From NCBI GenBank assembly GCA_000025185.1, contig CP001848.1:3750001-3782000 (forward strand): a stretch of DNA of 32,000 nucleotides, given 5' to 3'. This document shows, piece by piece, positions 13,936 through 32,000 of this stretch. Source of the DNA: Pirellula staleyi DSM 6068. Lineage in GTDB: Bacteria; Planctomycetota; Planctomycetia; Pirellulales; Pirellulaceae. A program made the translations under genes and the position numbers. Position 1 is the first letter of the stretch. Every line of letters starts with the position of its first letter. The notes under the pieces were generated by a model that did not search any database, was not told where the DNA came from, and was given only the letters and a program-made list of their open reading frames with translations.

Positions 13936-13979
13936 CGAAGTCTCTCTGACGTTGATGAGTCGCGAAGATCCAAAAACGC

Positions 13980-15741: not shown

Positions 15742-16947
15742 ATGGACCTGCACGCTCTCACACGCGAATTGCATCAGAAAAATGGCTCGAAAATCGTCAT
15801 GCTGGTGGCAGACGGTTTGGGTGGCTTGCCCATGACAGCCGGGGGCAAGACCGAACTCGAGACCGCCAAAACGCCGAATCTCGACGCGCTTGCCAGCCGC
15901 GGTGTGCAAGGCGCAAGCATTCCTGTAGCTCCCGGCATCAGCCCCGGCAGTGGCCCTGGTCACTTGGGGCTTTTTGGCTACGACCCGATTAAGTATGTCA
16001 TCGGTCGCGGTGCACTTGAGGCGACTGGTATCGGTTTTGCCATGCAGCCCGGCGATGTAGCTGCTCGTGGAAACTTCTGCACGCTCGACACCGAAGGGAA
16101 GATCTCGGATCGTCGCGCCGGACGTATTGCTTCCGAAGAGAGCGCTCCGCTGGCGATTCGCTTACGTGAAGTGAAGATTCCAGGCGTCGAGATTTTTGTT
16201 GAGCCCGTTAAAGAACATCGCTTTGTGGTTGTGTTCCGTGGTGCGGGACTCGAAGGGAACGTGAAAGACACCGATCCCCAGGCTGTTGGCGCATTTCCAC
16301 TCAAGCCCGTCGCTGTTGATGCTGGAAGTGCCAAGACAGCCGCAATTGCCGCTGAATTCGTGGCTCAAGCTACCAAGCTGCTGGCAGGAGAAAAGAAAGC
16401 CAACGGACTAACACTTCGTGGTTTCTCGGGCCGTCCTGATCTGCCGACCTACGAAGAAGTGTACGGGCTGAAGGCTGCCGCGATTGCGGTCTATCCGATG
16501 TACAAAGGACTGGCGCAGCTTGTCGGCATGAAGATTGTGGGGAAGGCTCAAACGTTGAAGGAGCAGGTGCAGATCCTGACCGATGAGTGGAACAACTATG
16601 ATTTCTTCTTCCTGCACTTTAAGTACACCGATAGCACCGGCGAAGATGGAAATTTTGATGCGAAGGTTAAGCGAATCGAAGAACTCGATGCCGTGATGCC
16701 AGCTATCGAAAACCTGAAACCCGATGTATTGATTGTGACTGGCGACCACAGCACGCCGAGCTATTTGAAGAGCCACAGCTGGCATCCAGTCCCCACGCTG
16801 CTGGTGAGCGATTGCTGCCGTCCCGACGGTAATACGTCGTTTGGTGAATCGTCGAGTATCCGTGGCGGGCTCGGTCAGTTCGAAGCCAAATACTTGATGG
16901 CTCTGGCACTCAGCAATGCGGGTCGCATGGGTAAGTACGGGGCGTAG
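15742..16947 (+). CDS. apgM: Cofactor-independent phosphoglycerate mutase, archaeal type (ApgM family)
   Basis: Read from ATG 15742: KIVMLVADGLGGLP...TPNLDALA...PGSGPGHLGLFGYDP...DRRAGRI...TGDHSTPSYLKSHSWHPVP. The 73-codon in-frame extension upstream has no family-like sequence. Confidence 0.9.
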   Translation: MDLHALTRELHQKNGSKIVMLVADGLGGLPMTAGGKTELETAKTPNLDALASRGVQGASIPVAPGISPGSGPGHLGLFGYDPIKYVIGRGALEATGIGFAMQPGDVAARGNFCTLDTEGKISDRRAGRIASEESAPLAIRLREVKIPGVEIFVEPVKEHRFVVVFRGAGLEGNVKDTDPQAVGAFPLKPVAVDAGSAKTAAIAAEFVAQATKLLAGEKKANGLTLRGFSGRPDLPTYEEVYGLKAAAIAVYPMYKGLAQLVGMKIVGKAQTLKEQVQILTDEWNNYDFFFLHFKYTDSTGEDGNFDAKVKRIEELDAVMPAIENLKPDVLIVTGDHSTPSYLKSHSWHPVPTLLVSDCCRPDGNTSFGESSSIRGGLGQFEAKYLMALALSNAGRMGKYGA

Positions 16948-17015: not shown

Positions 17016-18347
17016 TTACTTTACGAGTCTCGCGCTGAGCCAGTTGGCAAGATCTCGAGTATCTCCTTCGTCGGAAAAGTCGACGATCAGCGCGATGCGG
17101 AGTTTGTTCTCGAGGGGTATGGAGATGGGCGTTGGAGCCTCTCCGCCACGAATGATTTTGCTTTCAAAAGCCGGTTGGAATTTTCCATCTTCGCCGGCCA
17201 GCAACACTTTGAAGATCACGCTTCCACGACCATCGGTGCTGTCGTCGAGGGCGAGTTCTGCTTCGAACTTCTTCCACGAGCGATCGATCTCGTATACCAC
17301 GCTTGACGCGCTGTGAACTCCAATTCCTTTTCGATAGAGAGTGCCCTGCGCGCGAAGTGGCTGACCCATTGCATTCAAGTTGAATAGCGTCGGCCACACG
17401 GTGGTGAGCAGTGGAATGTGGCGCGCCAAAATCGGCTTTTGATCCGAGAGATACGAGATGCGAGGGGAATCAGACTCGATCATCTCGACGAGTGAATAGG
17501 GAGTGGGCTCCACTTGTTCACTGCGAGAGCCAGCGGTGGACAACGTGGCTCCCGAGACCAGCGTGAAGTTCAGTTTGCCATCGCGGTTCTCGATGGAACG
17601 GACGTTTAGAAGTGAACCATCGATGAGGGAAACCCAAGCTCTTTTTTGCTCTTCAACTACATCCGTTACCGGCAGTTTCCCGCGCGAAGCAAAAACGATC
17701 GCCAGCACTTTCGACGCCGGGATATCGATTTGTCTCGCATCGGCTGTTAGTTGCACCTGCACCACGTCGCTGGCGGGAGTCTGCGAAGCTTCTGCGGTTA
17801 GGTTGGGGAGCTTGATAACCGTGCCTGCGATCGACTCGCCTCCCGAAAGAAGAATGAGATCGCTTGGCGCGCTGTGGTCAGTTGCCTGCTTGCGGAGTTG
17901 GGCTCGCGTCGATCGTTCGAGGGGTAGTCGAAAAAAGATGGCACGGACGTCTCGTTTTTCTAGGAGTGTTTGCTCCCAGAACGATCGGTCGAGACCAGCT
18001 GAGTCTCCCAAAAGCAACTGATTGGCTTCGAGCCGCAGCACATCCGCGACAAGCTCGCTCTGATCGTTCAAAACAACGAGAGAGGTGGGGAGTCGATCGC
18101 GACGTTCGCCCCAGCGGACAAGATCGCGGCTGCTGGTGACGATCGCGCGATCGCCTTGACGAAGCGAGATGTTGAGTTCGCCATCGATAGAAAGGAGTGA
18201 GCCGCTCACAGGGGGATCATCGATTCGAATCGCGGTCCGTTCGACGGCCTGCGCAGAAAGCGTGCTCGGCGCGATGGCTGCGAAGGAGAGCATCGCCAGA
18301 AGCGATACCATCCACCATCGGGCAGAAGAAATCGGTCGCCAGTTCAT
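17016..18347 (-). CDS. Exported protein with a C-terminal NPCBM (glycan-binding module) domain
   Basis: Signal peptide MNWRPISSARWWMVSLLAMLSFAAIAPSTLSA/QA. C-terminus YRKGIGVHSASSVVYEIDRSWKKFEAELALDDSTDGRGSVIFKVLLAG, the NPCBM pattern. The start lies 4 nt after the upstream stop. Confidence 0.8.
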   Translation of the reverse strand: MNWRPISSARWWMVSLLAMLSFAAIAPSTLSAQAVERTAIRIDDPPVSGSLLSIDGELNISLRQGDRAIVTSSRDLVRWGERRDRLPTSLVVLNDQSELVADVLRLEANQLLLGDSAGLDRSFWEQTLLEKRDVRAIFFRLPLERSTRAQLRKQATDHSAPSDLILLSGGESIAGTVIKLPNLTAEASQTPASDVVQVQLTADARQIDIPASKVLAIVFASRGKLPVTDVVEEQKRAWVSLIDGSLLNVRSIENRDGKLNFTLVSGATLSTAGSRSEQVEPTPYSLVEMIESDSPRISYLSDQKPILARHIPLLTTVWPTLFNLNAMGQPLRAQGTLYRKGIGVHSASSVVYEIDRSWKKFEAELALDDSTDGRGSVIFKVLLAGEDGKFQPAFESKIIRGGEAPTPISIPLENKLRIALIVDFSDEGDTRDLANWLSARLVK

Positions 18348-18351
18348 GGAA

Positions 18352-19449
18352 CTACCGCTGAAAGATCGGCAGGTAGTTGTTGGGCATCTGCAAAATTATG
18401 CAGGCCATGGCAGTGCCGTATTCCGAGCAAATCAGATCGAGCCACGAGCCGTCGGGCTGCTGCTGTTTGAGCAGAACATCGTGCACAGCGGGATACCAGC
18501 GTTGCCAGTATTGTCCACCAGCTTGCCACATCGCTTGCACACCGTAGTAGTGACCATAGAGTGCGTGAGTATCGCGGCTGAGGTCTTCTTGACGCGGCAT
18601 GTTTTGCATCAGGTAATCGAGACCTTTGCGGATCTCATCCCCCGAGTAGATGCCCGCGCTATAAAGCGCCACGACACCGGCGGCCGAACGTGGAAATCGG
18701 CTAGGGCCACCTTGCAACATGTACATGAACCCGCCATCGGCGTTTTGGCTTCGCTTGACATAATCGACACAGCGGTCGATTGTCTCGCTCGGCACATAGA
18801 TCCCTGCATTGCGTGCTGCGCGAAGCGCCATCACCTGACAAATAGTGACAGAGATATCGGCATCGTGCACGCGCGGCATGTAACGCCAACCCCCTTCGGA
18901 GTTTTGCGTGGCGATGATGAGCTTGACTGCGCGCGATAGTTTTTCGCGAACGGAGGAGTCGGGGCTCATGCCGTAAACTTCGGCGAGAAAGAGAGTCGCA
19001 AAACCGTGATCGTACATCGGGCCGTGACTGGCAGATGTCGGTAGCGAGATGAATCCGCTGTCGTCGCTACAGCCGAGTATGAACTCCATGGCGCGAGTTG
19101 TTTCGAGTCCATACTCTCCGCGGCCAGGTGTATTGCCTCCCGCTAAGAACGCCATGCCACCGAGCGCCACGACAGCCGTGTTGCGGGCATAACCACTCGC
19201 GCCAAACGAGCCATCGTCTTGTTGTCGGGCGGCGAGATAGGCTAGGCCGCGATCGATAGCAGCCTGGGTTGCGGGGCGAATCAGATCGGCTGGATTCGGT
19301 TCTTCAATCAGCGATTGTTGAGCGAGAAGAGGTGTCGCGATTGTTGTGAGTGCCAGAGCCGCACTACTGCGAAGTAGTGCGCGACGCGAGATGGGAGAAC
19401 CTGCAACCAGGGGCTGCGTGGGCACGGATGTCGCTTTCGAGCTGAGCAT
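18352..19449 (-). CDS. Tat-signal prenyltransferase/terpene-cyclase-fold (alpha/alpha toroid) repeat protein
   Basis: ATG at 19449 with GAGGAAGGA upstream. Twin-arginine motif ISRRALLRSSAALALTTIATPLLA. Repeated Q-x-x-DG-[SG]-[FW] motifs (QQDDGSFG, QNSEGGWRY, QNADGGFMY, QQPDGSWLD). Confidence 0.8.
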   Translation of the reverse strand: MLSSKATSVPTQPLVAGSPISRRALLRSSAALALTTIATPLLAQQSLIEEPNPADLIRPATQAAIDRGLAYLAARQQDDGSFGASGYARNTAVVALGGMAFLAGGNTPGRGEYGLETTRAMEFILGCSDDSGFISLPTSASHGPMYDHGFATLFLAEVYGMSPDSSVREKLSRAVKLIIATQNSEGGWRYMPRVHDADISVTICQVMALRAARNAGIYVPSETIDRCVDYVKRSQNADGGFMYMLQGGPSRFPRSAAGVVALYSAGIYSGDEIRKGLDYLMQNMPRQEDLSRDTHALYGHYYGVQAMWQAGGQYWQRWYPAVHDVLLKQQQPDGSWLDLICSEYGTAMACIILQMPNNYLPIFQR

Positions 19450-19517
19450 CGTCGATCCTTCCTCGGCACGTTTCCAGCAAAGTTTGCCACGAACTCGAGT
19501 GGCCAAACTTGCCCCTA

Positions 19518-20270
19518 TTATGGACTAGTCACTGGTTCGTCCGCCAGACGCTTGTAGTAGGCTTCGATCAGTTTTTCATACTTCGGCAGGAACTCTTCGC
19601 TCATCCCCGAAATCATCTGTTCCCGGACTTTTTCGGGCAAATGTCCCCAGACGCGGCGAAGCTGGTTTTTGAGCTCGACGAGCTGAACCTCTGTTTGGGG
19701 GTTGGGATCGACACGGTTGTCGCTCTCCTGTGTCGAACTGGGAGAAGCTGAACCATCTCCCGGGCTATCCTGTGCACTTGAGTTGGCCTGCCCAGCGGAA
19801 TTCTGTTCCGGTTGAGATTGGCCACTAGTGGTTGGAGACGACGCCAGCATCGCTTCAAGGTCTTGCACAATCTGCTGCTGAATCGATTGCGTAGCTGTCG
19901 TCGTATCGCGCAGCTTCAGCCGATCGCGCGACGATCGCATCTTGAGCAGAACACGCGCAAGGGGATCTTCCTGCTTGGCGGATTGGCCCACATCTTCGCC
20001 ATCGATCACGGGCAACGGAGTTGAAGGATTGGTGGGACTCGCTGAATCGTTAGGTGTTGGTTTCGCTTTCGAATGGAGCCCTGCATTGGCGTTTGGTGGA
20101 GACTTGTCTGGACTTTGAGTCGCCTTCGGCGGTTGTGGCTTCGGCGCCTCGATGGCGGGGAGACCTTCAAGCAACTGCGACTCGAGAGAGTCATCAGCCG
20201 AGAAAACGGAGGAAGCAAGCAGCAAGGTGACTGCGATTACCAATCCGAGGTAATGCAAGTGAATGTTCAT
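19518..20270 (-). CDS. Secreted P/S/Q-rich low-complexity protein with a conserved-looking helical C-terminus
   Basis: ATGA overlap with the upstream stop. Signal peptide MNIHLHYLGLVIAVTLLLASSVFSA/DD. C-terminus VWGHLPEKVREQMISGMSEEFLPKYEKLIEAYYKRLAD, reminiscent of DUF4175-type C-termini (from memory, unverified). Confidence 0.7.
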   Translation of the reverse strand: MNIHLHYLGLVIAVTLLLASSVFSADDSLESQLLEGLPAIEAPKPQPPKATQSPDKSPPNANAGLHSKAKPTPNDSASPTNPSTPLPVIDGEDVGQSAKQEDPLARVLLKMRSSRDRLKLRDTTTATQSIQQQIVQDLEAMLASSPTTSGQSQPEQNSAGQANSSAQDSPGDGSASPSSTQESDNRVDPNPQTEVQLVELKNQLRRVWGHLPEKVREQMISGMSEEFLPKYEKLIEAYYKRLADEPVTSP

Positions 20271-23200
20271 TTCGCACCTCCTGGCGTAGGTATGTCTTTC
20301 AGAAGCTCGGACTCGAGTGAATCCAGTGGACCGAGATTATTCGTTGGATCAGGAGGCTGCTGAGTTGTCGTATCGCCGTCCTTTGCTGGCTCCGTAGCAT
20401 TGGTGGGCTCGAGAATGCGCTCCACGAGTCCGATGAGTTCGTCTTGTTCACGCGCGAGTTCATCGAGTCGTGCGAGATCGACTTCCGAAAGTTCTCCCTG
20501 TTCGCGACGCTTCTCGAGTGCTGTGGTTTGCTCGGCGATCGCTTGCTGTAGCATCGCCAGCAACTTGATTTCACTAGCCGATAGCTGCTGCTTTGGCGCT
20601 CCGTTGCTGGGAGTATTTTCACCAGAGGGTGCAGGCGGAGGAGTGGTGCTGGCGGTGCGGACGGCATCGATTAGCGTCTTGATTGTTGTGGCGAATCGGC
20701 TGGAAGTTGCCTGGGAATCTGGGCCTGTCTGCTCCTGATCGAGTCGAGAAGCAAAGTCGCGCATTTCAGTCGAGGTTGCTTGAGCTACGACGCGCATCGG
20801 CAATCCCTCGGCGAACAACTGTGCGGTGGCAGCCAGTTGTAGTGCATTCTCTCGCTGCTGATTAGCTGCAAAATCAGCCAGCGACTTTGCATCTTTGACG
20901 GCAGGATTTTCGCGTCGTGCATCCTCGCTTTCGAGAATCCAGTTCGAGACGATCATTTGTTGCTCGAGCAACTTGGCCAGCATTTCTTCGATCTTGCCAA
21001 GCTGTTGTTGCAGCAACTGCTGCTGTCCCGATTGAATTTCGCGTTTAAGTTGACGCATCGCAGCACTGAGTTGCTCAGCGGCGCGACGAACTTCTGCGAG
21101 TGAGTTCTCGGCTGATGTACGCTGCATCTCCGCTTCACGCAAGGCAGCCGACGAAGCACGTGCGAGTTCTGCTGCAGCAGGCGACCCACTGGCCTGCAGC
21201 GACTCCGCCAGGTCATCACCTTCGGCTGCTAGTGGTCCTTTGGCGTTGCCAAGTTCGTCAAGCGTATTCTGCTGCGCATCAGGATCGGTGCTAGCCGCAG
21301 CTTCCTCATGTCGCTGTAATTGCTCGGCAACTTTGCTGGCATGCTCCGTAAGTTTTGAAGCTGATTCTTCTAGTGCCGAAAGATTGTCCTGGAGTGCTTC
21401 CGTAGGTTTGCCCTGCAAGATTTCGAGGATTCGGGCAAGAGTGTCACGCGTTTGCAGCGCCAACACAACGCTCTCTTGCACACGTTCACTGGTAAGCTCA
21501 CTCGCAATGCGCCGCATCATTGGCGCAATGGCACTCTGCGATGCAATTTCGAGTCCTTCCCTGAGTAGCTGCGATGTGCGTCCGTCGCTTTCGGCTGTAC
21601 GTGCGGCAAGATCTTCACAGCGAAGTTGCCATTTCTCCATCCCTCGCGCGAGCTCTTGTTCGCGCATGACAACCCAGGCCACTGTTGCACTCTCACCAGT
21701 GGCTGCTTGATTGTTCGTCGCAATAATTCGGCTGATTCGGAGCTCGTCGAGTTTCTCATGGATCTGCTTTTGCGAGTCGTGGATTTGCACCAACTCGCGA
21801 ATGAGTTTTCCAAAAGTGTCAGACTGCGTTAGAGTTCCGAGCATCGATTCTAGTTGCGCAATCAGATTGTTTTGAGCCTGCTCGGCAGTCGTAAGCGAAC
21901 TAACGATTGGGCTATCGCTTGATGGATCGCAGGTTGAATCTTCTTCGCGTTTTCTAGCTGCGGAAGGGGGCGGGCTCTTCGACGTCACCTGTTTGAGCGC
22001 GTTTGTAATCTCTCTGCGAATCGCCACTAATTCTGTCTGTCGAAGGCTCCCAATCTGATCGTAGAGAGTTGCCAGAGGTGCATAGATTGGCGACTTTTCG
22101 AGTCGATTTTGTGCTAAGTCTTCCGTGCACTGCTGAATGAGTCGCTCGGCACCCTCGCTGGGGTCGATCAGCAGTTGCTCGGCGAGTCGGTGGTTGAGTT
22201 CCGCTCGACGCAGGGTTTCGATGGACGCAGCTTCAGCCGATTCGTTTTGACGTAGCTGCGTGATAACCGAGGTGGTTTGGTCGCGCGATTGCCTGAAGAG
22301 CTTCAGGGCATCGCTCAACTGATTTAAGATTGCCGCTTGCCGCTCCATGATGCGACTAGCAAACTCGTCTTCGGTTACCACTGCAATGGAAAACTCAGGT
22401 GAAACACTGGGATGGCCACCGTAATCTCGCGCAAGAACATTCACATCGACGCGAGCGCCGGGAGTGAGCCCTGAGATCGTTTCGAGATCGATCCAATCTT
22501 GCAGTTCAAGTTGTTGTCCGCCTGCATTTGCAACCTCAAGTGATACCTCTTTGCCACCGTCGTAAAGCAACTTTGCCGTGGGAGTGAAAACACCACGCAG
22601 CCAAGGTCCGTAGCGAAGTTCTACATTCTGAATTCCGAGGTCGTCTTTCACGATTGCGTGAATTGGTATTCGTGCATGAACGGTGCAGAACTTCGAATCG
22701 CTAAGGTCTCGGATTGTTACAGTGGGAGGTTGATCGGGTATTACTTTGAGCTCGATGCGTGCGAGCGTTGGAAGCTCGACATCATCATCGGTTGAAAGTT
22801 CGATCGGAAAGCTTCCCGACTCCGTTGCAACCCAAGGATGCGATGGATCTGTTGCGATAGCCTCGCCGTTCTCAACAACTGCGAGCACTGTTTTCGGAGT
22901 CGGAGTTCCCTTGAGCATTGCTCCTCGTACCGGCTGATCGACGTCGGCCCGAATCTCGATCTGCGAACCTTCACGCACCGTAGCAAGTCGCGATGAAGTT
23001 GCGATGGGAAGTCGCGTATATTTCGGGGCTGTGATGGTGAGCAGAATGTTCGATAGTCGAGGTGGCTCGACTACACGCAGCATTGTCCACTCCATCGATT
23101 GATCGTCGCCACCTCTGGCGCGGTACGATAGTGACTCGGCAATTCCGTCGAGTCGATCGACCATACGATCGCCGCGAGGCTTCATTACACGCGATTGAAT

Positions 23201-23911
23201 GCGCGTGGGATCGCGCTCATAACGCAACTCGAGAACTACCTCGTCAGGCAAAGGACCTGCGCGGTCGAGCAACTCGAGTTCAAGCGTTTCACCACGCGCC
23301 AAAATGGTTGGCGCGACGACCCAAGCCAACTGATGCTGCGTGGGATAGCGCGTGTTGCTCCACGGCATTATTAAGCGGTTTGCGGCAATCCAACTGCTCG
23401 AGGGGCTAGCTAGTGTAACCATTGCCATCGCCAGCAGAGCGAGTGAAAGCTGCAGGGTCGAATGCCAGAGTGGTCGTCGATCAACTGCTTCCGTTAGCGC
23501 GCAATGTTGCGCTTTTTGTTGCGCATCGCGCAAGATTGCGCTAGTGATGGGTGTGGATGTGCTGGACGAGTCAAGATACAGCGCGACGGCTGTGCTCAGC
23601 AGTTCCCGAAGTTCCGGAAATCGACTCTCGATTTTTCGGCTAACGGCAATGCGCTCGAACTTCGCCCGCATCGCAGGAATTACCCAGCGCGCGAGTACAA
23701 AACCCACCACAGCAACGAGCGAAAGTGAAAGCCCCCAGCGAATGATCGGTGAGATCCCGCTCGTGAGCCAATCAACAAAACCAACCAGCACCATCGCTGT
23801 TAGCACTGCTGCAAGCGCGCGCAACAAGGTCGACCAGCGAAGCACAAGCCTCGCTAGTTTCGCAACCTGATCGACTCGCTCAACAAGGGATGACATTGCG
23901 GTTTGCAGCAC
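20267..23911 (-). CDS. Giant (1214 aa) membrane-anchored protein: N-terminal TM helices, a beta-rich middle and a long helical/coiled-coil C-terminal half (possibly DUF4175-like)
   Basis: GTG at 23911 (alternative ATG at 23896). TM segments LRALAAVLTAMVLVGFVDWL, WGLSLSLVAVVGFVLARWVI and LQLSLALLAMAMVTLASP, followed by the SRKIESRFPELRELLSTAVAL block. Roughly the last half is E/Q/A/L-rich heptad-like sequence. Confidence 0.8.
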   Translation of the reverse strand: MLQTAMSSLVERVDQVAKLARLVLRWSTLLRALAAVLTAMVLVGFVDWLTSGISPIIRWGLSLSLVAVVGFVLARWVIPAMRAKFERIAVSRKIESRFPELRELLSTAVALYLDSSSTSTPITSAILRDAQQKAQHCALTEAVDRRPLWHSTLQLSLALLAMAMVTLASPSSSWIAANRLIMPWSNTRYPTQHQLAWVVAPTILARGETLELELLDRAGPLPDEVVLELRYERDPTRIQSRVMKPRGDRMVDRLDGIAESLSYRARGGDDQSMEWTMLRVVEPPRLSNILLTITAPKYTRLPIATSSRLATVREGSQIEIRADVDQPVRGAMLKGTPTPKTVLAVVENGEAIATDPSHPWVATESGSFPIELSTDDDVELPTLARIELKVIPDQPPTVTIRDLSDSKFCTVHARIPIHAIVKDDLGIQNVELRYGPWLRGVFTPTAKLLYDGGKEVSLEVANAGGQQLELQDWIDLETISGLTPGARVDVNVLARDYGGHPSVSPEFSIAVVTEDEFASRIMERQAAILNQLSDALKLFRQSRDQTTSVITQLRQNESAEAASIETLRRAELNHRLAEQLLIDPSEGAERLIQQCTEDLAQNRLEKSPIYAPLATLYDQIGSLRQTELVAIRREITNALKQVTSKSPPPSAARKREEDSTCDPSSDSPIVSSLTTAEQAQNNLIAQLESMLGTLTQSDTFGKLIRELVQIHDSQKQIHEKLDELRISRIIATNNQAATGESATVAWVVMREQELARGMEKWQLRCEDLAARTAESDGRTSQLLREGLEIASQSAIAPMMRRIASELTSERVQESVVLALQTRDTLARILEILQGKPTEALQDNLSALEESASKLTEHASKVAEQLQRHEEAAASTDPDAQQNTLDELGNAKGPLAAEGDDLAESLQASGSPAAAELARASSAALREAEMQRTSAENSLAEVRRAAEQLSAAMRQLKREIQSGQQQLLQQQLGKIEEMLAKLLEQQMIVSNWILESEDARRENPAVKDAKSLADFAANQQRENALQLAATAQLFAEGLPMRVVAQATSTEMRDFASRLDQEQTGPDSQATSSRFATTIKTLIDAVRTASTTPPPAPSGENTPSNGAPKQQLSASEIKLLAMLQQAIAEQTTALEKRREQGELSEVDLARLDELAREQDELIGLVERILEPTNATEPAKDGDTTTQQPPDPTNNLGPLDSLESELLKDIPTPGGAK

Positions 23912-24112
23912 ATCACTAAAAAATGATCGGAATCGTGATCAGCCGAACATAGGGGCCGACGCAAAAGCACTTCCCTTATTCTCTCGCGTTGCTCTGGCGC
24001 TGGCTACCTCGAATTACTTGGTGTTTGACGAAATTAGCCTCAGAAACCGAGCCCTGTTACATCGTGGTTACGAAAATTCGGGACTTACGATCGAATTTGT
24101 GGACCAGACGTG

Positions 24113-26518
24113 TCACACCAACCCACAACGCTTTCGCAGCAGCCACTCCGCTGTTAAGAGGGCGATGATGGAAATCGCCACAATCGGAAGGTTCCACAGC
24201 GGCTGCGGAGGGAGCGACTCAATACGAACTTGACGTCCTGGCGGCAGATCACGCGTCAGTTCAGCAACGTTCGCAAGCGTATAGAACTTACCTTGCGAGA
24301 GCTCGGCAGCCTCGCGCATCGCAGCCGCATCCATTCGCACACTCGCAAGTTCACCAGGAGGTGAGACAATCTCAAACGATTTCACGAGCGGCTTACCAGC
24401 AGGCTCGGGAGTGGCAATTGTCCATTGATATTTCCCCTCGGCGAGTTGCGGCACTGTTGCTTCAAAGAGACCACGGCTCGCATTGTCGCGCCGTAAAGTG
24501 ATCGTCCGTCGCTGACTCCCTTCGCGCTCCAGTTGTATCGTCACCCCATCATCGGCGGCTGGTGCATCGCGATCGTCGAAATAACGTGCCCTCAGCTTGA
24601 CGACATCACCCCGACGATACTCCTCGCGATCACTTGTCAGCTCGACTTTGCGATCACCTCCCAAAAGTGAAGACCGCGCGAGATAGCGAACCAGTTGAAT
24701 CCAGTAGCGAGCAAAATATCGATCACCATGACGATAGCGCCAGCGATGCGTTTCATCGGTTGCATGAAATACCACTTTTCCTGCCCCTACAAACGACAGC
24801 GTGAAGAGTGGTGAACTATCACGATACTGGCTATCGCTAGGAAAAGTAGCTAAGGTGCGAACACCTGGTTTCAATTCACGAATCCGGGCAACCCATCGCA
24901 GATCGGCCAAATCACGCGACCAGACGGTACGATTCGCCGTCGACGAATCGGTGAGTTGCAGGAACGATGTGGAGGTTCCAAGGGGAGTTAGTTGCGGTCG
25001 CTGACCTGTACGTATCGGCACGTTTTCCGGGGGAAGTTCTACCGATGCAATGTTCATCGGCAACAAATTCTCAATCGGTGTGTCTTGATAGGCCATCGGC
25101 ATGTAACGCGGGCCAGCCATCATTACAATCGAGCCTCCTCGCTCGGTCACAAATTCTTCGATGTGCTCAAGTGTTGCTGGCGAAAGAAGTGCGGGATTGA
25201 CGTCCCCCAGAATGATCACATCGTACTCAAATAATTCCTCGCGACTGATCGGAAAAACACGCTGTGCGGAGAGGTCGGTGTCGGCGTACTCAAGATCAGC
25301 CTCTTGAAGCACCGAGCGAAAACTGCGAGCCGATCGCTCGGTCTTCTCGCGGTTTAGCTCTCGTTCGAATGTCGACTTCAGAAACCGAAATTCATAGTTC
25401 GGATAAGCTTGCACCAATAGCACGCGAATCGATTCCTCCGTTGCTACGACACGATGCGTGAGACGATTGTTCGTGCGATTGACTTCTCCCTCTTGAGGAA
25501 CCACTTCGATGGTGTAGTCAAAAGTCCCTTCGGTTTCGATGCGATGCGACAGCCGAATGCTTTGCGTCGGAGACGCGAGATTCACCGTCTGCTCTGCCAC
25601 GGGGCGAGGATTACCCGCAACAAACAGTCGCACGATGGCGCGTCCCTGAACCGACTCGCTCGCGAGCTGAAAATCGAAGTTCACTAGATCGCCGACAAAA
25701 GCGGTGCTCTCTGCAACTAAGTCGGAGATCCGCAAGTCGCGGGCAGGCTGATCGCTGCCAAGTCCCACGAGAAATAGCGGAATTCCTTTGCGGCTTGCAT
25801 AGCTGGCTGCTTCGCTCAAGGGACGTCCCTCTGTCGTCACACCATCCGACAAAACAATGATACCCGCCGTTGGGCGCCCGCGCTGCTGATCGATGATGTC
25901 TCGCAAAGTCTTGCCAAGTCTCGTCGACGAATCGCGAGCAGAGATCGCGCGGATAGATGTCTCGAGTGTATCGGGCTGAACATCGCGAGGGCGAGCCGAG
26001 CGACCAATCACGTAGTATTTCAGTGAGTAACGGCGCGAAAGTTCATCTACGAGTCCATGGTTGTTTTCAAGCAGCAGCATCTTGGCAAGATTCACGCGGG
26101 TCGAATCATTGAGCGATAGTGCATCGAGCCTTTTGCGTAGTTGAGGCTGAAGCGCGTTGCCATAGTGATCGGCGAGGCTCATGCTTTCGCTATCGTCGAT
26201 GGCAATCACGAGGTCAGGTAGGTCGGTCCGATGCTGTTGCCAGGTCCAGCCAAGGAGCATCAATACGACGATCGTTATCACACTTGCGCGAAGGGTGGCG
26301 AATAGCATGCGCCAAAAGAAACTGGCCCGTGGCGACTCGCGCAGGTAAATGAGCACCACTGTGGAAATCAAAGTGATGGCGACGAGTGGTAAAATCCACC
26401 ACGCGAGGGGCCAGCTTTGGTCGATAGATGTTTCGAGCGCTTGTGTCTTTACGCTGGAGGATACGCTTCCTGGAACCGTCGATTGCGCGAACATGAACGA
26501 GGAGAATCGCGTCATCAT
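24113..26518 (-). CDS. Double-anchored vWA-domain membrane protein with a GATase1-like middle domain
   Basis: ATG at 26518 forms ATGA with the upstream stop and has AAAGGGG 7 nt upstream (alternative ATG at 26545). Two N-terminal TM helices. MIDAS motif VIAIDDSESM and IIVLSDGVTTEG. YDVIILG...FVTERGGSIVMMAG. C-terminal anchor LPIVAISIIALLTAEWLLRKR. Confidence 0.85.
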   Translation of the reverse strand: MMTRFSSFMFAQSTVPGSVSSSVKTQALETSIDQSWPLAWWILPLVAITLISTVVLIYLRESPRASFFWRMLFATLRASVITIVVLMLLGWTWQQHRTDLPDLVIAIDDSESMSLADHYGNALQPQLRKRLDALSLNDSTRVNLAKMLLLENNHGLVDELSRRYSLKYYVIGRSARPRDVQPDTLETSIRAISARDSSTRLGKTLRDIIDQQRGRPTAGIIVLSDGVTTEGRPLSEAASYASRKGIPLFLVGLGSDQPARDLRISDLVAESTAFVGDLVNFDFQLASESVQGRAIVRLFVAGNPRPVAEQTVNLASPTQSIRLSHRIETEGTFDYTIEVVPQEGEVNRTNNRLTHRVVATEESIRVLLVQAYPNYEFRFLKSTFERELNREKTERSARSFRSVLQEADLEYADTDLSAQRVFPISREELFEYDVIILGDVNPALLSPATLEHIEEFVTERGGSIVMMAGPRYMPMAYQDTPIENLLPMNIASVELPPENVPIRTGQRPQLTPLGTSTSFLQLTDSSTANRTVWSRDLADLRWVARIRELKPGVRTLATFPSDSQYRDSSPLFTLSFVGAGKVVFHATDETHRWRYRHGDRYFARYWIQLVRYLARSSLLGGDRKVELTSDREEYRRGDVVKLRARYFDDRDAPAADDGVTIQLEREGSQRRTITLRRDNASRGLFEATVPQLAEGKYQWTIATPEPAGKPLVKSFEIVSPPGELASVRMDAAAMREAAELSQGKFYTLANVAELTRDLPPGRQVRIESLPPQPLWNLPIVAISIIALLTAEWLLRKRCGLV

Positions 26519-28755
26519 CGGCGAGTCCCCTTTCCAAGTTTCCATGCGATCAGAGATTCGGTTATCAGAAGGCCAAGCAGGGCAGATAGGATCCAGCGGA
26601 AGGCAGGTGTATTCTGTCGTCGAAGTGATTCTTGCTGCAGCGATACCGAAGCGTCACTAGGCTGAATTTCGCGTGGCAGTGACGCAGCATCGATTCGCGT
26701 TAGATCACTTTCCCGCGTGTCGACATTCACAGCAATCACTTGTTTCAGTAGCGGATTGCCTCCGACGAAGTCCACCTCATACGGCCCCGAAAGAAGCGGG
26801 GCGGCAAACTGCCAGCGCGGCTGACGGGCAACATTCGTCGCAGTCACACGTTGCTCGCTTCCGTCAGGAAGCGTGATTTCAATTTCACTTGTCGCTACTT
26901 CCGGAGGAATCTCTCCCGAGAGATCCTCTCCCACCAGGGCATTACGCGCGACGAGTTGAGGGGTGATTGCGACATCCAAAATGCGGTGCACAAGTGGCGG
27001 AAAACTGGGCCATGAAGACCAGGCCGACCAAGGTCCAGGTGGATCGAGTTCACTGTCGATCGTATCACTCGAAGCCGCAATTGCCGAGAGAATGACGCGT
27101 CCTTTTCCATACGCACCCTCCACCAGCATCGGTGTTCCATCCGAAAGTCCAACCGCAGCGATTGCGCTGGGGCGGAGCAGCAACTTCTGGTGTCGCCAGA
27201 TCGGAATCGTGAGCAGTCCACTGCGGTCGTGTCCCCGAAATGGAGCAGTGATCGGATGTAAATAATCAAGCGGATCGACTCGAAACTCACCTGCCGGTGA
27301 GGGGCCCTCGAGTTTGGCGGGTAAGAGCGGAATCGTTTCTAGAAGCGCTTGATTGTACGAAGCAATATTGGTGTCGCTTCCGAGTAGCACCACGAGTCCA
27401 CCTCCCGCCTCGACATAATCCGCGAGCATTTTGGCTTCGGAAGAGGTGATGGTGGCAACTTCTGCGAGCATCACGCAGTCGTACTGAGAGAGTGTTTGTT
27501 CGGCGAGTGTTGATTCGAGTATTTCGGTCACTTGCACGTCGCTACCAGTCAGAAGTTCTGGCGCAAGTGCGATGGCTAGGCTCCGCGTACTGGCTGCGCG
27601 ACTACCAACCAGAAGTACCGAGACGCTAGAACGGACCCGCATGGAAAGGGATCGCGTGTTGTCGATGGCGAGTGCATCGTCGGCTAGATGGACTTCGATG
27701 AGATGCTCGCCTGGAGCTGCAATCGAGGTGGTGAAACTAGCCGAGGCTTTGGAGTTTGCCTCGATGCTGAGCGATTGTTCGGCGACGATGTTGCCATCTA
27801 CTTTGAGTTGCAGCAAGCGATTACTGACGTCGTCGGGTGAGAAATTTTGAAGTTCGGCGTCGATGGTAAAAGGCCGCGAAGTGGTCGCGATTGGTTCGCT
27901 AGGCAAAAGACTCGTGATAGCGAGATTACCAGTTTCACGGCTCCCAAGCTCGATCAGCGAAACAACGGAACTGGAGCTGATTTCCTTGAGTTTTCCGCTG
28001 ATTTCGCGGGAGTTGGTATCACTCCATGTGCTGCGTCCAAGATCGGTGAATAGCAGCACGCGCCGCGATGTGAGTCGCGGGTGGCTGCGGACTGCCTCTT
28101 CGAGCAACGTTTCGACGAGGGCAAGCGTCGCCCGCAAATCGGCACCACCATGCAGCATCTCGAGATTGCTCACCTCTTCGGCGACATCGCTGGCATCGAA
28201 CGAAACTTGGCCGATCGTAGCACGTGGAGGATCGGCCATTTGCACGAGTAAAAAACCATCTCCTTGGCGAGAACTTTCGATGACCGAAAGCATGCGACGC
28301 TGCGCTTCTTCGAGACGAGACTTGCCATACGCTGTGAAGAGCGGTGCAGCGGGAGCAATCGCGTCGGGGCTCTCTCCGGGAGTCGCCGCTGCACTGATGG
28401 CATCACGCGTCAGCATCGAAAAACTACTGTCGACAACCAAAATCGTTAGTTGTCGCGTCCCATCACTTTCGCTCCGATCGGTACCCAGTCCCACAAAAAG
28501 TGGATTGGCCACCGCAAGGGCCAGCAAGAGCAGTACGAGGGTGCGAACCGCCAGCAGTAACCACTGCTCGAGCAGGATGCGTCGCGAATGTTTACGAGCC
28601 GCCGCGATCAGAAACTCCATCGCCGCGAACTTCACCTCGCGCGAGCGCCACTTGCTCAGCAAATGGATTACCAGCGGAATAGCAGCTGCGGCGGCGAATA
28701 CCAGCATCCCTGCGCTGGCAAGCTGCCAATAGGCGAGCGGAAGAGCCAGGGGCAT
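26515..28755 (-). CDS. BatA-N (aerotolerance-regulator N-terminal double-TM) / vWA-domain membrane protein
   Basis: ATG at 28755 overlaps the DUF58 stop (TGATG). N-terminus AAAAAIPLVIHLLSKWRSREVKF...LLLAVRTLVLLLLALAVANP is the BatA-N pattern. MIDAS motif ILVVDSSFSM. YDCVMLA...LADYVEAGGGLVVLLG. C-terminal anchor FRWILSALLGLLITESLIAWKLGKGTRR. Confidence 0.85.
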   Translation of the reverse strand: MPLALPLAYWQLASAGMLVFAAAAAIPLVIHLLSKWRSREVKFAAMEFLIAAARKHSRRILLEQWLLLAVRTLVLLLLALAVANPLFVGLGTDRSESDGTRQLTILVVDSSFSMLTRDAISAAATPGESPDAIAPAAPLFTAYGKSRLEEAQRRMLSVIESSRQGDGFLLVQMADPPRATIGQVSFDASDVAEEVSNLEMLHGGADLRATLALVETLLEEAVRSHPRLTSRRVLLFTDLGRSTWSDTNSREISGKLKEISSSSVVSLIELGSRETGNLAITSLLPSEPIATTSRPFTIDAELQNFSPDDVSNRLLQLKVDGNIVAEQSLSIEANSKASASFTTSIAAPGEHLIEVHLADDALAIDNTRSLSMRVRSSVSVLLVGSRAASTRSLAIALAPELLTGSDVQVTEILESTLAEQTLSQYDCVMLAEVATITSSEAKMLADYVEAGGGLVVLLGSDTNIASYNQALLETIPLLPAKLEGPSPAGEFRVDPLDYLHPITAPFRGHDRSGLLTIPIWRHQKLLLRPSAIAAVGLSDGTPMLVEGAYGKGRVILSAIAASSDTIDSELDPPGPWSAWSSWPSFPPLVHRILDVAITPQLVARNALVGEDLSGEIPPEVATSEIEITLPDGSEQRVTATNVARQPRWQFAAPLLSGPYEVDFVGGNPLLKQVIAVNVDTRESDLTRIDAASLPREIQPSDASVSLQQESLRRQNTPAFRWILSALLGLLITESLIAWKLGKGTRR

Positions 28756-29654
28756 CAAGGGCTCCTCGCGCTGCTGTGTCCCAGCATCTCGGCAATCGAT
28801 CGATCAAGAGGTTGATCGGTGATGCACTGGTAGTAATGAATCCCCTGACTACGACAGCCACCTTCGAGTGCCTGCTGATACTTCTTAAACTCTGCTTGGT
28901 AGGCATCACGCAGCAGTTGTGGATCGGCGGTGAGTTCAGGCCACGCCTCGAGCCCCTTAAAAAGGGTGCTCCCTTCATAGGGAAAATCAATTTCAGCGCG
29001 ATCGAGCAGGTGCAGCAGCAGCACGTCGTGTTGGCGATGTCGCAAATGTGCAAGTCCCGCCAGCATCGATTTTACATCGTCGAGAAAGTCGCTTAACACG
29101 ACAACAATTCCACGACGTTTCCAGCGCGACGCAAGCTCGTGGAAAATGGGACCAGCAGACGTTTTTTCACCCCGAGCTGGCTGGTCGAGAATCTCAACGA
29201 GTTCCTTGAGATGTCCAGGGCCCGATGCCGGTCGTACGACTGAGCGCAGTTCGCGATCAAAGGTAGCGAGTGCCACGCTGTCGTTCTGACCAACGACGAG
29301 CCAAGCGAGGTGGGCCGCCAGGAGCTGCGCGTATTCGAGTTTGCTCAGTCCCTGGTCATCGCTACGAAACGTCATGCTCTCACTGACGTCGACTACCAGG
29401 TAGCCGATCAGATTCGTTTCATCCTCAAATTGCTTGAGGTAGAACTTGTCGGTTCGCGCAAAGAGCTTCCAGTCGACGTAGCGCAAATCATCGCCCGGCG
29501 CATACTGACGATGCTCGGCAAATTCGATCGAAAAACCACGGAGTGGACTGGCATGCAGTCCAGCAACGTAGCCTTCGACGAGGTGCGTGGCACGCAGCCG
29601 CAGCGATCGCAGCTTAGCGAGCGTCTGCGGATCGAAATAGTTGAGCGTGCTCAT
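28755..29654 (-). CDS. DUF58-family protein (vWA-like, MoxR partner)
   Basis: From ATG 29654: MSTLNYFDPQTLAKLRSLRLRATHLVEGYVAGLHASPLRGFSIEFAEHRQYAPGDDLRYVDWKLFARTDKFYLKQFEDE, the canonical DUF58 block. VVDVSESM. It overlaps the MoxR 3' end by 41 nt. Confidence 0.85.
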   Translation of the reverse strand: MSTLNYFDPQTLAKLRSLRLRATHLVEGYVAGLHASPLRGFSIEFAEHRQYAPGDDLRYVDWKLFARTDKFYLKQFEDETNLIGYLVVDVSESMTFRSDDQGLSKLEYAQLLAAHLAWLVVGQNDSVALATFDRELRSVVRPASGPGHLKELVEILDQPARGEKTSAGPIFHELASRWKRRGIVVVLSDFLDDVKSMLAGLAHLRHRQHDVLLLHLLDRAEIDFPYEGSTLFKGLEAWPELTADPQLLRDAYQAEFKKYQQALEGGCRSQGIHYYQCITDQPLDRSIAEMLGHSSARSP

Positions 29655-30669
29655 CGCGGGCGAGTGGTTCGTCGCTGGGGAGTGGGATTTTGGCGAGGAG
29701 TTTGCGAATGATCTCGTCGGAAGAGAGGCCAGCAGCATCGGCGGCGTAGGTCGTTTTCAGACGATGGCGTAGCACAGGAAGGGCAACTGCTACCACATCG
29801 TCGTGGGTCACAAAAAGTCGACCGGCAAGTGCAGCGCGGGCCTTCGCGGCCAGGACTAAATACTGCGAAGCACGAGGGCCAGCGCCCCACTGCACATACT
29901 CGCGTACAAAGTCGGGGGCGAGTGGATCGCTCTTGCGAGTGGAGCGAGCGAGCGCTAGTGCGTAGCGGGCGACATGGTCGGCAATTGGAATTTTCCGGAC
30001 CACACGCGAGAGGTGAATAATGCTCGCTGCATCGAGTGTGGGGGCAATCGTCGTTTCGATATCGGCTGTCGTTCGTTTGACGATTTCCAATTCTTCATCG
30101 TGCGAAGGATAGTCGACCCAGACTTGAAACATGAATCGATCGAGCTGTGCTTCGGGGAGAGGATACGTCCCCTCTTGCTCAATGGGGTTTTGCGTTGCCA
30201 GCACAAAAAACGGATCGGGGAGTGGATGCTTTTGGCCCGCAACCGTGACTTGCCGTTCCTGCATCGCCTCGAGCAGCGCGGCTTGTGTTTTCGGCGGAGT
30301 CCGGTTGATTTCGTCGGCCAGCACAATACTGGCAAAAACAGGACCTCGCAGAAATCGAAACGAGCGTTCCGAAGTGGTGCGATTCTCTTGAATTACTTCG
30401 GTCCCGGTGATGTCGGAGGGCATCAAGTCGGGAGTGAATTGCACGCGCGAGAATGAAAGATCAAGCGACTCGGCAAGGGAACGGACGAGAAGCGTTTTGG
30501 CAAGTCCCGGGACACCTACGAGTAAGCAGTGACCGCGCGCAAAGAGGGTGATCAGCAGTTGCTCGATCACTTCCGTTTGACCGACCACTACTTTGGAAAG
30601 TTCGGCTGTGATCCGTTCACGCGCAATCCGGAGCTTGTCGACAGCTTGGCGATCGTCGTACTGTTCCAT
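29614..30669 (-). CDS. MoxR-family AAA+ ATPase
   Basis: Walker A GVPGLAKT, Walker B VLADEINR, ATQNPIEQEGTYPLPEAQLDRF. 351 aa, with about 21 residues beyond the usual ...IPLP end. Confidence 0.92.
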   Translation of the reverse strand: MEQYDDRQAVDKLRIARERITAELSKVVVGQTEVIEQLLITLFARGHCLLVGVPGLAKTLLVRSLAESLDLSFSRVQFTPDLMPSDITGTEVIQENRTTSERSFRFLRGPVFASIVLADEINRTPPKTQAALLEAMQERQVTVAGQKHPLPDPFFVLATQNPIEQEGTYPLPEAQLDRFMFQVWVDYPSHDEELEIVKRTTADIETTIAPTLDAASIIHLSRVVRKIPIADHVARYALALARSTRKSDPLAPDFVREYVQWGAGPRASQYLVLAAKARAALAGRLFVTHDDVVAVALPVLRHRLKTTYAADAAGLSSDEIIRKLLAKIPLPSDEPLARDEHAQLFRSADAR

Positions 30670-30849: not shown

Positions 30850-32000
30850 TTACTTCATCGTATCTGGGGGCGAGAGCGGAAGTGGAAAGCAAATCAGTTC
30901 TTCGCCGGTTACCAGAAGCAAGGAGTTTCCCGCTTGCACAAGATTTCCGCCGGAAAAGCCACGCTGAGAGAGAATGATTTCACCCAGAGGCTGTGGAATC
31001 ATCCCCAGCGGGCCCCGCGTTGGGCTCGTCGAGAAGAGATAGATGCTGTCGCGGGTCGGAAAGTAGACTTGCGAGCCGATGATAAGTCCGCGGCCGAGCC
31101 CGCGCGGATTCGCAGCTGCGTCTCCCGCCGTCCCTGGGGAACCAGCGGGAAATTGCGAGGCGAGTGTTCCAGTGCGAGTGTCGATCCAGTAGAGCCAGTC
31201 GCCACTTGCCAGTAGATAGTCCCCTTGCACTCCCAGCAGATGCATGGCGTCGCGGCACAACGAGGCGGGCAATGCCCAGAGCATACGACCACTCAGCCGA
31301 TCGAGGGCAAAGATCCGGTCGCAGTCGGATGGTGCGCAAATCACCATCGAGTCGTGCACTAAGCAGGGGGTGAGATCGCGAAAGAAAACATCGTCGGATT
31401 GATCTGCGTCGGCGCTGCGAAAAGTAGAGCGTGGATAGCGGTGCATCCACGAAAGCTTCCCCGAACGTGAATCAAGCGCAGCGATGAGCCCTTGCCCTGA
31501 ATTCACGAAAAGTTGGTGGCCATCGAGCGACAACAGGTGGTGCGAGAGTTCGTCGATATCGCCGTTGCCGAGCGTTGCCGATGAGGCGAGTCGAGTGCGC
31601 CAGCGAAGCGTTCCAGTAGGGCGAAAATCGGCTGCATTTCCGTCTGCTGGGGGTGGCGATGATCCGTGGGCAAATGCAGCGACATAGAGTTGTGAGCGGC
31701 CTCCATCGACACGCCGCATCAAGACAAACAGCCCCTCGTCGCTGACCACTGGGGTCCCTTCAAAACTCCAGAGGCTCGACTCGGGGCGAATCGGAAATCC
31801 ATCCACCGGTTTGCCATCGGCCGTGAGGTCGTAGCCCCAGAGCGACGCTTGATCAGCTGCCAGAAGTCGATTGACGCGCCGCGAAGATGCTCCGGTGATT
31901 GGAGAACCCATGCGCGAATAGACGATGCCGCGATGGGCGGTGAGTGTGAATCTCGCGACCCCAAAATGGCGAATCAAATTGGCATGCGTGTCACTGACGT
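30850..32000 (-). CDS. PQQ-like beta-propeller repeat protein (BamB/PQQ_2-like), 5'-partial: the N-terminus lies beyond the window
   Basis: The frame stays open from 31977 to the window edge (the track's start at 31977 is only a TTG). Recurrent propeller blades with G-x-L-x-W motifs (GTLRWRTRL, GKLSWMHRY, GRMLWALPA, GTLASQFPA). Confidence 0.75.
   Translation of the reverse strand, partial: VSDTHANLIRHFGVARFTLTAHRGIVYSRMGSPITGASSRRVNRLLAADQASLWGYDLTADGKPVDGFPIRPESSLWSFEGTPVVSDEGLFVLMRRVDGGRSQLYVAAFAHGSSPPPADGNAADFRPTGTLRWRTRLASSATLGNGDIDELSHHLLSLDGHQLFVNSGQGLIAALDSRSGKLSWMHRYPRSTFRSADADQSDDVFFRDLTPCLVHDSMVICAPSDCDRIFALDRLSGRMLWALPASLCRDAMHLLGVQGDYLLASGDWLYWIDTRTGTLASQFPAGSPGTAGDAAANPRGLGRGLIIGSQVYFPTRDSIYLFSTSPTRGPLGMIPQPLGEIILSQRGFSGGNLVQAGNSLLLVTGEELICFPLPLSPPDTMK

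Follow-up and report, generated by a model that had tools for sequence, protein, structure and literature searches.

Clusters of genes coding for a MoxR ATPase, a DUF58 protein and BatA-like membrane proteins with von Willebrand factor A (vWA) domains are found in many phyla, and reports connect them with aerotolerance, stress, virulence and interbacterial defence. Among these relatives MxaRSACKL alone has a defined biochemical job. Which job such a cluster could have in a planctomycete is the question raised by the DNA discussed here, a stretch of 32,000 nucleotides (nt) from Pirellula staleyi DSM 6068 (contig CP001848.1, positions 3,750,001 to 3,782,000), which we call the window. It carries a MoxR-DUF58-BatA/vWA core of four genes (g1 to g4), one gene upstream of the core (g0) and a tail of four further genes (g5 to g8). 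The model we prefer is that these genes code for an inner-membrane platform, driven by ATP and by metal ion-dependent adhesion sites (MIDAS), which would mature, metal-load or position glycan-directed periplasmic proteins encoded in the same array. Judged from sequence and by analogy, we give this model a probability of about 0.4. It is proposed because of the anatomy of the gene products, their linkage in other genomes, and the precedents of two MRP-type MoxR operons, Mxa and MoxR1.

A conserved array of nine genes

Eight consecutive open reading frames (ORFs) on the minus strand run from position 30669 down to 17016, as seen from the ORF list and from direct reading of the junctions. An earlier interpretation of the window, made from the letters and their ORFs (the sequence-only reading), had described these eight ORFs, and its coordinates and junctions were reproduced exactly. 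From g1 to g8 the junctions are -41, -1 (TGATG), -4 (ATGA), +201, -4 (ATGA), +68 and +4 nt, where a minus sign denotes an overlap. A near-identical assembly with independent gene calls has the same eight genes and differs in the choice of starts alone: g4 starts at 26515 and g5 at an ATG at 23896 (1209 residues), which makes the gap between g4 and g5 216 nt. In about 20% of the genomes the cluster is split at this gap (23912..24112 in the window, minus strand). No terminator or sigma-70 promoter was recognisable in the 201 nt by a scan that is uninformative for this phylum, and the window contains no Rfam or tRNA features.

The sequence-only reading counted eight genes and let the cluster begin at 30669. 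This has to be amended, since a ninth gene in the same direction, g0 (30850..32000, minus strand, continuing past the window end), directly precedes moxR in 32 of the 49 informative loci; the median distance between the two is 38 nt. The g0 frame is open to base 31998, i.e. the gene is truncated by the end of the window.

To collect the loci, one genome of each GTDB species was scanned for a degenerate pattern, with an alignment of six g5 sequences as query. The scan gave 80 loci, all from Planctomycetota, and every one which carries a finer name is from the Pirellulales (Bremerella, Botrimarina, Blastopirellula, Thermoguttaceae, Lacipirellulaceae and Anammoximicrobium). The presence of each gene was scored by tblastn of the nine window proteins against the loci. 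Upstream counts are limited to loci that reach 8.2 kb or further upstream of g5 (49 loci, which we call informative), and downstream counts to those that reach 7.5 kb or further on the other side (59 loci).

The g4 gene lies directly upstream of g5 in 39 of the 49 loci, and the complete series g0-g1-g2-g3-g4 is present in 32. Downstream of g5, 57 of the 59 loci have g6, 51 have g7 and 50 have g8; the three are found together in 49. The intergenic distances have medians below 100 nt across the loci. The sequence-only reading had named co-occurrence of tail and core in related genomes as a point on which it could fail; with the core next to g5 in 39/49 loci and g6 to g8 behind it in 49/59, the two do occur together. 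The array is far beyond what chance would give because it recurs in dozens of species at 25-65% protein identity; it is real, and it is conserved across the Pirellulales.

The proteins of the core and the tail

Domains were called by Pfam and NCBIfam profile searches, and transmembrane (TM) helices and signals were predicted from hydropathy and the positive-inside rule. The profiles bear out the domains which the sequence-only reading had assigned to the MoxR, DUF58, BatA-vWA, second vWA, toroid and NPCBM proteins.

The g1 gene (29614..30669, minus strand, as are all the genes in this section) codes for a MoxR-class AAA+ ATPase (AAA_3, 5.4e-65, and AAA_lid_2) which is predicted to be cytoplasmic. 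Its Walker A sequence is GVPGLAKT and its Walker B sequence LADE, and the nucleotide-binding motifs of MoxR are conserved across the loci. The g2 gene (28755..29654) codes for a DUF58 protein (5.7e-44) with a vWA-like fold and the MIDAS motif DxSxS, also predicted to be cytoplasmic. The 41-nt overlap of the two genes (29614-29654) is conserved, with a median estimated junction of -41 nt over 37 loci, which suggests that translation of the ATPase and of its adaptor is coupled.

Both g3 (26515..28755) and g4 (24113..26518) code for predicted inner-membrane proteins. The g3 protein has a BatA_N double-TM segment, a vWA domain with MIDAS, a ThuA/GATase1-like domain and a C-terminal TM helix; it matches PF07584 (BatA_N, 5e-12), TIGR02226 (3e-16) and VWA_2 (1e-9), in addition to the ThuA-like region. 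The g4 protein has a vWA domain with MIDAS (VWA and VWA_3), a GATase1_like domain (DUF1355) and an Ig-like region. Hydropathy gives two N-terminal TM helices and one C-terminal TM helix in each of g3 and g4, and none in MoxR and DUF58. Across the loci, g2, g3 and g4 all retain the DxSxS motif. Most of g3 and of g4, including the vWA domains, is predicted to face the periplasm because of the positive-inside rule and because the vWA domain of the BatA-like Borrelia protein BB0173 is periplasmic by experimental topology (PMC5700661). These two lines agree with each other and with the periplasmic facing which the sequence-only reading had predicted for both vWA proteins.

The g0 gene codes for an exported protein with a C-terminal beta-propeller of the PQQ_2/BamB type (Pfam PQQ_2, 7e-11); the propeller scores 21.9 against PF01011, where the cut-off is 26.7, and PQQ_2 is matched instead. 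Full-length homologues have about 780-850 residues and consist of a signal peptide, a TPR-like helical region and the propeller. The TPR_2 and TPR_6 matches in a full-length homologue are weak (E 0.4-0.95).

The first gene of the tail, g5 (20267..23911), codes for a predicted inner-membrane protein of 1214 residues. Neither g5 nor g6 matches a Pfam or NCBIfam family, and g5 gives no match to PF13779 (DUF4175) at E<=1. Among 16 homologues of g5, PF13779 is matched by four (best 7.5e-7) and Big_7 by nine, and one homologue (P0003) is labelled "DUF4175 family protein" by NCBI. The architecture is DUF4175-like as well, with N-terminal TM helices followed by a long helical region of low complexity which is predicted to be extracytoplasmic. 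On these grounds we regard g5 as a remote relative of DUF4175 and not as a member.

AlphaFold2 models were made of monomers, for g5 with residues 1-600 and ten homologues, and for g7. The g5 model (predicted local distance difference test, pLDDT, 86.8) contains a TM hairpin, a helical segment at about residues 75-150, a third TM helix, three immunoglobulin (Ig)-like sandwiches at 195-511 and the start of a long helix. The segment at 75-150 is strongly conserved, and its charge distribution puts it in the cytoplasm by prediction. The last approximately 700 residues are helical and rich in A, L, E and Q. The three Ig-like domains between the membrane part and the helical part correct the sequence-only reading. 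A Foldseek search of the PDB returned generic three-Ig or macroglobulin (MG) arrays alone (the MG domains of complement C3 and alpha-2-macroglobulin, NCAM, KIT).

The g5 family is very large. Out of 1.84 billion, 19,907 cluster representatives were matched at E<=1e-3 by a profile of the N-terminal 600 residues, and 5,555 still at E<=1e-30; in a word-indexed protein database, four proteins were found with a profile made from the N-terminal alignment. The sequence-only reading treated the 1214-residue gene as a non-canonical addition to the core. This view cannot be kept, as g5 is a DUF4175-type relative from a large family and such a gene also follows MoxR-DUF58-BatA in Gemmatimonadota, as described below. 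A report on the Acinetobacter baumannii protein AdvA as a "DUF4175" protein was considered as a parallel and set aside, the match being a short and partial one in a division protein.

The g6 gene (19518..20270) codes for 250 residues, predicted to be exported or anchored, with a signal or anchor helix, a linker rich in P, S and Q (14% S, 12% P and 10% Q in residues 26-200) and a conserved C-terminal motif, WGxLP...R...FxPxY...YYxRLA. In three genomes (L044, L061 and L081) g6 is fused in frame to g5. The motif was also found in a distant locus (L082), where it comes after a split g5.

The g7 gene (18352..19449) codes for a product which is 100% identical to Psta_2910, a single-domain (alpha/alpha)6 toroid with repeats of the prenyltransferase/terpene-cyclase type and a signal for twin-arginine translocation (Tat). 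The N-terminus reads ISRRALLRSSAALALTTIATPLLA, i.e. an S/T-R-R-x-F/L-L motif and then a hydrophobic stretch. All of 28 homologues have R22, and at least 90% of them have R23. By the motif and its conservation g7 is a predicted Tat substrate. The AlphaFold2 model (pLDDT 85.9; predicted template modelling score 0.82) is a single (alpha/alpha)6 barrel of about 320 residues. Pfam finds SQHop_cyclase/Prenyltrans repeats, TIGR01507 scores 28.8 against a cut-off of 431, and the sequence matches to solved cyclases are partial, covering 80 residues. Among the Foldseek neighbours (TM-score about 0.6) are the sugar-acting proteins AprG, a sugar transaldolase solved with N-acetylglucosamine, the polysaccharide hydrolase MmpH and cellobiose 2-epimerases; others are single-domain "squalene-hopene cyclase"-like proteins, drimenyl diphosphate synthase and the beta subunit of RabGGTase.

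A role of g7 as squalene-hopene or other class II terpene cyclase was rejected because these enzymes have two domains, beta and gamma, of about 600 residues, where g7 has a single barrel, and because direct reading of the g7 sequence found no DxDD motif. The sequence-only reading allowed for isoprenoid binding by the toroid; for the same two reasons, and with sugar-acting (alpha/alpha)6 enzymes among the structural neighbours, we have dropped this suggestion. We have also rejected a "split alpha-2-macroglobulin", in which g5 would supply the MG-like part and g7 a toroid like the thioester-containing domain, since g7 lacks the CxEQ thioester motif and the matches found are of a generic kind.

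The median identity across the loci is 65.7% for g1, 61.7% for g7 and 56.8% for g2, and 26-42% for g0, g3, g4, g5, g6 and g8. The toroid is thus as conserved as MoxR and DUF58 and is the most conserved gene of the tail. The extreme C-terminus of g7 (…QMPNNYLPIFQR) and several blocks with His, Asp or Cys (SHGPMYDHGFATLFLAE and DADISVTICQ) are essentially invariant across the Pirellulales. They may form a metal site or active site, or be a docking peptide.

The last gene, g8 (17016..18347), codes for a signal-peptide protein with a beta-rich N-terminal half, for which no family match was found, and a C-terminal module which matches PF08305 (NPCBM) with 1.4e-29 over profile positions 4-136 of 137. 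In the PDB the module matches 7js4 (2e-13) and the CBM51 entries 2vmg and 2vmh (about 5e-3). It is by sequence an NPCBM/CBM51-type module, predicted to bind glycan.

The platform model and its alternatives

The platform model postulates two adjacent blocks, each resembling a transcription unit, which would work together. Block A (g0 to g4) would be an MRP-type module with a MoxR ATPase and a DUF58 adaptor, in which g3 and g4 carry MIDAS vWA domains and GATase1/flavodoxin-like domains in the periplasm. Block B (g5 to g8) would contribute the DUF4175-type g5 with three Ig domains and a helical stalk of about 700 residues, its partner g6, the Tat toroid and the NPCBM lectin-like protein. MoxR and DUF58 would use ATP to act on those parts of g3, g4 and g5 that face the cytoplasm, i.e. 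on the BatA_N loop and on residues 75-150 of g5, and this would assemble or switch the periplasmic platform. The MIDAS sites of the platform could then capture, metal-load or release co-encoded periplasmic proteins, with g7, g8 and g0 as the clients or effectors which would act on envelope glycan. The whole would be a machine for maturation and positioning of periplasmic envelope proteins, and not an aerotolerance or redox system. In this model we infer the topology, the physical contacts, the identity of the clients and the glycan substrate.

Several observations support the platform model: the adjacency of core and tail with short gaps, far more frequent than the retention of flanking housekeeping genes, the fusions of g5 and g6, the recurrence of part of the array in the distant L082, the linkage of DUF4175-type genes to such cores in more than one phylum, the conserved MIDAS and ATPase motifs and the conserved Tat arginines. 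The strong constraint on g7, compared to the 26-42% identity of the scaffold proteins, is a further point, and so are the sugar-acting fold neighbours of g7 together with the NPCBM module of g8. The sequence-only reading went further and proposed an "envelope-spanning" assembly; no outer-membrane component or lipoprotein was found among the cluster products, and we have confined the model to the inner membrane and the periplasm.

A number of observations weigh against the platform model. The structural matches of g7 are generic, with TM-scores of about 0.6, and an active site was not identified. The toroid gene is absent in L082 and in 8 of the 59 loci. The core of the Rhizobiaceae, described below, is found without any of g5 to g8, so a core does not need the tail. 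No core is found upstream of g5 in 10 of the 49 loci (about 20%), most of which keep g5 to g8, and the genes found there instead are unrelated (an SNF2/PLD-GmrSD-HEPN insertion in L015, DUF2961, purH). Anatilimnocola aggregata likewise has g5-g6-g7-g8 without the core, in a locus anchored on g7. The tail is therefore a separable unit with its break point in the 201-216-nt gap, and a tail on its own together with this gap means that the two blocks can be transcribed, and perhaps function, independently. Finally, the anchor of every locus used for comparison was g5 or a close orthologue of g7, and the loci come from one order and a few outliers; the synteny could in part be inheritance within this order.

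Three loci deserve a comment of their own. In L015 (3663-9774) the expected place of the core is taken by an SNF2/ResIII helicase with a PLD-like domain, GmrSD_N and a RiboL-PSP HEPN protein, and looks like a defence island. In L090, which was anchored on g7 and has a contiguous core and tail, a Peptidase_S51 gene (2480-3205) lies between g3 and g4. The very divergent L082 has the order BatA-vWA2-g5-g6-NPCBM-like with a weak NPCBM homologue at the position of g8; after this gene come three tandem genes for Trypsin_2/PDZ (HtrA-like) proteases (11078-15863), and there is no toroid.

A stronger form of the platform model would make all nine genes one machine of a Pirellulales type, in which the MoxR/DUF58 motor, the g3/g4 MIDAS platform and the DUF4175/g6 stalk deploy the Tat toroid and the NPCBM lectin on cell-wall or surface glycan. 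This would be unlikely in our estimate. If true, it would give MoxR-DUF58-BatA clusters their first defined set of clients and their first testable function.

The alternative which survives best takes the array for a static scaffold in the periplasm. Here g3 to g6 would form a lattice or spacer that keeps the enlarged periplasm of planctomycetes in order or serves as an anchor for the wall, MoxR would be needed for assembly only, and g7 and g8 would be structural subunits binding the wall. The long A/L/E/Q-rich helix of g5 with its three Ig domains and the TonB-like P-rich linker of g6 look like parts of such a structure, GATase1-like and Glyco_hydro_42M-like domains are known as oligomerisation modules (PMC5898192), and NPCBM could bind wall glycan. 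Yet the scaffold proteins evolve fast while g7 is constrained like an enzyme, no outer-membrane or peptidoglycan-binding domain was identified, and the same core is present in Rhizobiaceae, which have an ordinary periplasm. We find a purely structural role rather doubtful.

Less likely again is a secretion or surface-assembly apparatus, as predicted by Makarova et al. for archaea, in which a membrane complex would carry g0, g7 and g8 to the cell surface, exporting or displaying them there. The part list does resemble that of the archaeal arCOG01314 neighbourhoods (PMC5898192), and all products outside the core have export signals. These signals are also the difficulty, since g0, g6, g7 and g8 have Sec or Tat signals and a dedicated inner-membrane exporter is not needed for them. 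Furthermore, there is no channel-forming polytopic protein, secretin or outer-membrane barrel among the products, and the archaeal model is itself a prediction.

The separability of the tail leads to a further alternative, that core and tail are two unrelated units which are neighbours by descent, one a generic MoxR/vWA stress module and the other (g5 to g8) a periplasmic operon for glycan handling. The gap of 201-216 nt and the loci with a tail next to unrelated genes (the 10 of 49 and Anatilimnocola) speak for it, and some synteny of flanking housekeeping genes does persist. As a baseline for synteny by descent we used the flanking housekeeping genes of the window in the same 49 loci, where iPGM is retained in 18, the metallo-beta-lactamase gene in 11, PGI in 10, and DUF6263, a 750-residue ORF and an ABC ATPase in 4 each. 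Against this background of 8-37% the adjacency of core and tail is 80%. The linkage is moreover kept in the very divergent L081 and L082, and a DUF4175-type gene directly follows MoxR-DUF58-BatA in Gemmatimonadota. Two independent units are in our opinion quite unlikely.

The weakest alternative, a module which senses or repairs membrane injury and gives resistance to envelope damage or antagonism, is improbable: Pseudomonas aeruginosa Arc2 (PA4317-23), with a MoxR-like ATPase and a vWF protein, does protect against the toxin ColA (PMC8926400), and stress phenotypes of MoxR are reported for Riemerella (PMC11834572), but PADLOC gave no matches, the array is vertically conserved among housekeeping genes and not in a variable island, and g5 to g8 are unlike lipid-repair or toxin-neutralising proteins. 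A phage-defence or conflict system was also rejected on the PADLOC result and because AAA_3 lies far above bpMoxR. The same holds for the ternary MoxR-vWA-beta-propeller conflict system of Kaur et al. (2020), as g1 scores 50 bits with bpMoxR and 218 with AAA_3 and has membrane partners of the BatA type.

The remaining genes of the window are mentioned here for completeness. The cluster is flanked at 12272-16947 by genes for DUF6263, a metallo-beta-lactamase-fold protein and PGI, and by iPGM on the opposite strand; iPGM, PGI and the metallo-beta-lactamase gene are next to the cluster in 20-37% of the Pirellulales loci, as residual synteny. At 8075-11256 (minus strand) an ORF of 750 residues without Pfam match has a 4-nt overlap with the start of an ABC-transporter ATPase gene (8075-9007). 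GldG-like ABC accessory proteins have been linked to MoxR/vWA clusters (Makarova et al., PMC5898192). At 3976-8013 (plus strand) a tightly paired UPF0261 gene (N and C domains) and PEP_hydrolase-like gene are followed by a sulfatase gene, apparently unrelated to the cluster.

Comparison with known systems

All components of the array come from families that are known or listed in databases, and its core is an established and widespread module. The claim of an "undescribed system" in the sequence-only reading is thus not valid for the core; for the tail and its linkage to the core it stands, as the literature searched contains no description of the nine-gene array of planctomycetes, of the g5-g6-g7-g8 unit, of the g5::g6 fusions or of a link between DUF4175 and the MoxR core. 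What the Pirellulales version adds is a set of conserved candidate partners: a Tat toroid, a glycan-binding protein, a propeller and a DUF4175-type stalk with a fused or adjacent partner. These turn the vague question of Bat function into specific experiments, in organisms whose envelope biology is unusual and debated.

The aerotolerance (Bat) operon of Bacteroides fragilis shares with the window MoxR AAA_3, DUF58 and the BatA_N double-TM protein with vWA. A second membrane protein with vWA is present in both; in the window it is g4, a possible counterpart of BatB, which has VWA/VWA_3 matches and TM helices but also a GATase1_like domain and an anchor at the C-terminus. Such domains and anchors distinguish both vWA proteins of the window from those of the Bat operon and its spirochaete homologues. 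BatD- and BatE-type partners were said to be absent in the sequence-only reading, and Pfam indeed found no BatD (PF13584), SH3 or significant TPR match in g1 to g8. A stand-alone TPR protein like BatC is absent as well, and the window has in addition the DUF4175-type protein, g6, the toroid with its Tat signal, an NPCBM protein and a propeller protein.

A closer relative of the core was found in Rhizobiaceae, in loci reached by tblastn with MoxR against annotated plasmid and chromid records. Loci from Rhizobium (L087) and Sinorhizobium (L086) contain MoxR, DUF58, a 937-residue BatA_N...DUF4159 protein and a 689-residue GATase1_like protein. With g1, g2 and g4 tblastn matched the corresponding genes in both loci, and with g3 it gave a weak match in L086 alone. 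The order of the four genes and the domain logic are those of g1 to g4, i.e. BatA_N with a domain of the GATase1 superfamily and then GATase1_like. The differences are that Pfam finds no vWA in the Rhizobium proteins, that g5 to g8 and g0 are lacking, and that a divergent DUF1285 gene lies upstream. Judged by gene order and domains, the planctomycete core is this four-gene module rather than a shortened Bat operon of Bacteroides.

In Gemmatirosa kalamazoonensis (Gemmatimonadota) a g5 relative of 1268 residues directly follows MoxR-DUF58-BatA/VWA/GATase1_like. Its tblastn match to g5 is 4e-12, and it scores 26.0 bits with PF13779, where the cut-off is 27.3. Like the window, this cluster has homologues of g1 to g5, and it codes for a TPR/peptidase-MA protein; its gene order is a different one, namely vWA2-like, TPR/peptidase-MA, MoxR, DUF58, BatA/VWA/GATase1_like, DUF4175-like, and the g6 motif, the toroid and an NPCBM gene were not detected. 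On this sequence evidence the g5 family is a regular partner of such cores in at least two phyla. DUF4175-type proteins, which have thousands of members and no known function, would thus belong with MoxR ATPase modules in at least two phyla.

The archaeal arCOG01314 neighbourhoods, predicted to code for a secretion or membrane-remodelling complex (Makarova, Galperin and Koonin, 2015; PMC5898192), resemble the window by having a membrane-anchored extracytoplasmic protein with a flavodoxin/beta-galactosidase-trimerisation-like domain, MoxR, vWA and Ig-domain membrane proteins. They are archaeal and made up of other families (DUF4350, S-layer-like), and the resemblance is one of part lists.

Two MRP-type operons come closest to the platform model in mechanism. 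Mycobacterium tuberculosis MoxR1 binds RipA, the product of a neighbouring gene, and is needed for Tat export of RipA, according to a work citing Bhuwan 2016 (PMC12067865). The moxR1 operon (MoxR1, DUF58 and a vWA membrane protein) lies next to ripAB and thus likewise adjoins the gene of a Tat-exported envelope protein. In this case the client is an NlpC/P60 peptidoglycan hydrolase, the organism is monoderm-like and there is no DUF4175-type protein.

The other is MxaRSACKL. It differs from the array in having no DUF4175-type protein, toroid or NPCBM protein, while the window has no MxaF/MxaI dehydrogenase; no dehydrogenase dependent on pyrroloquinoline quinone was found in the cluster, g0 being of the PQQ_2 BamB type. 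Nevertheless, MxaRSACKL shares with the array MoxR, DUF58 and vWA proteins encoded beside a periplasmic beta-propeller protein. MxaR, MxaS and MxaA/C/K/L (MoxR, DUF58 and vWA membrane proteins) are each required for loading of Ca2+ into the periplasmic methanol dehydrogenase (PMC12276312), which makes this system the best mechanistic analogue of the proposed platform.

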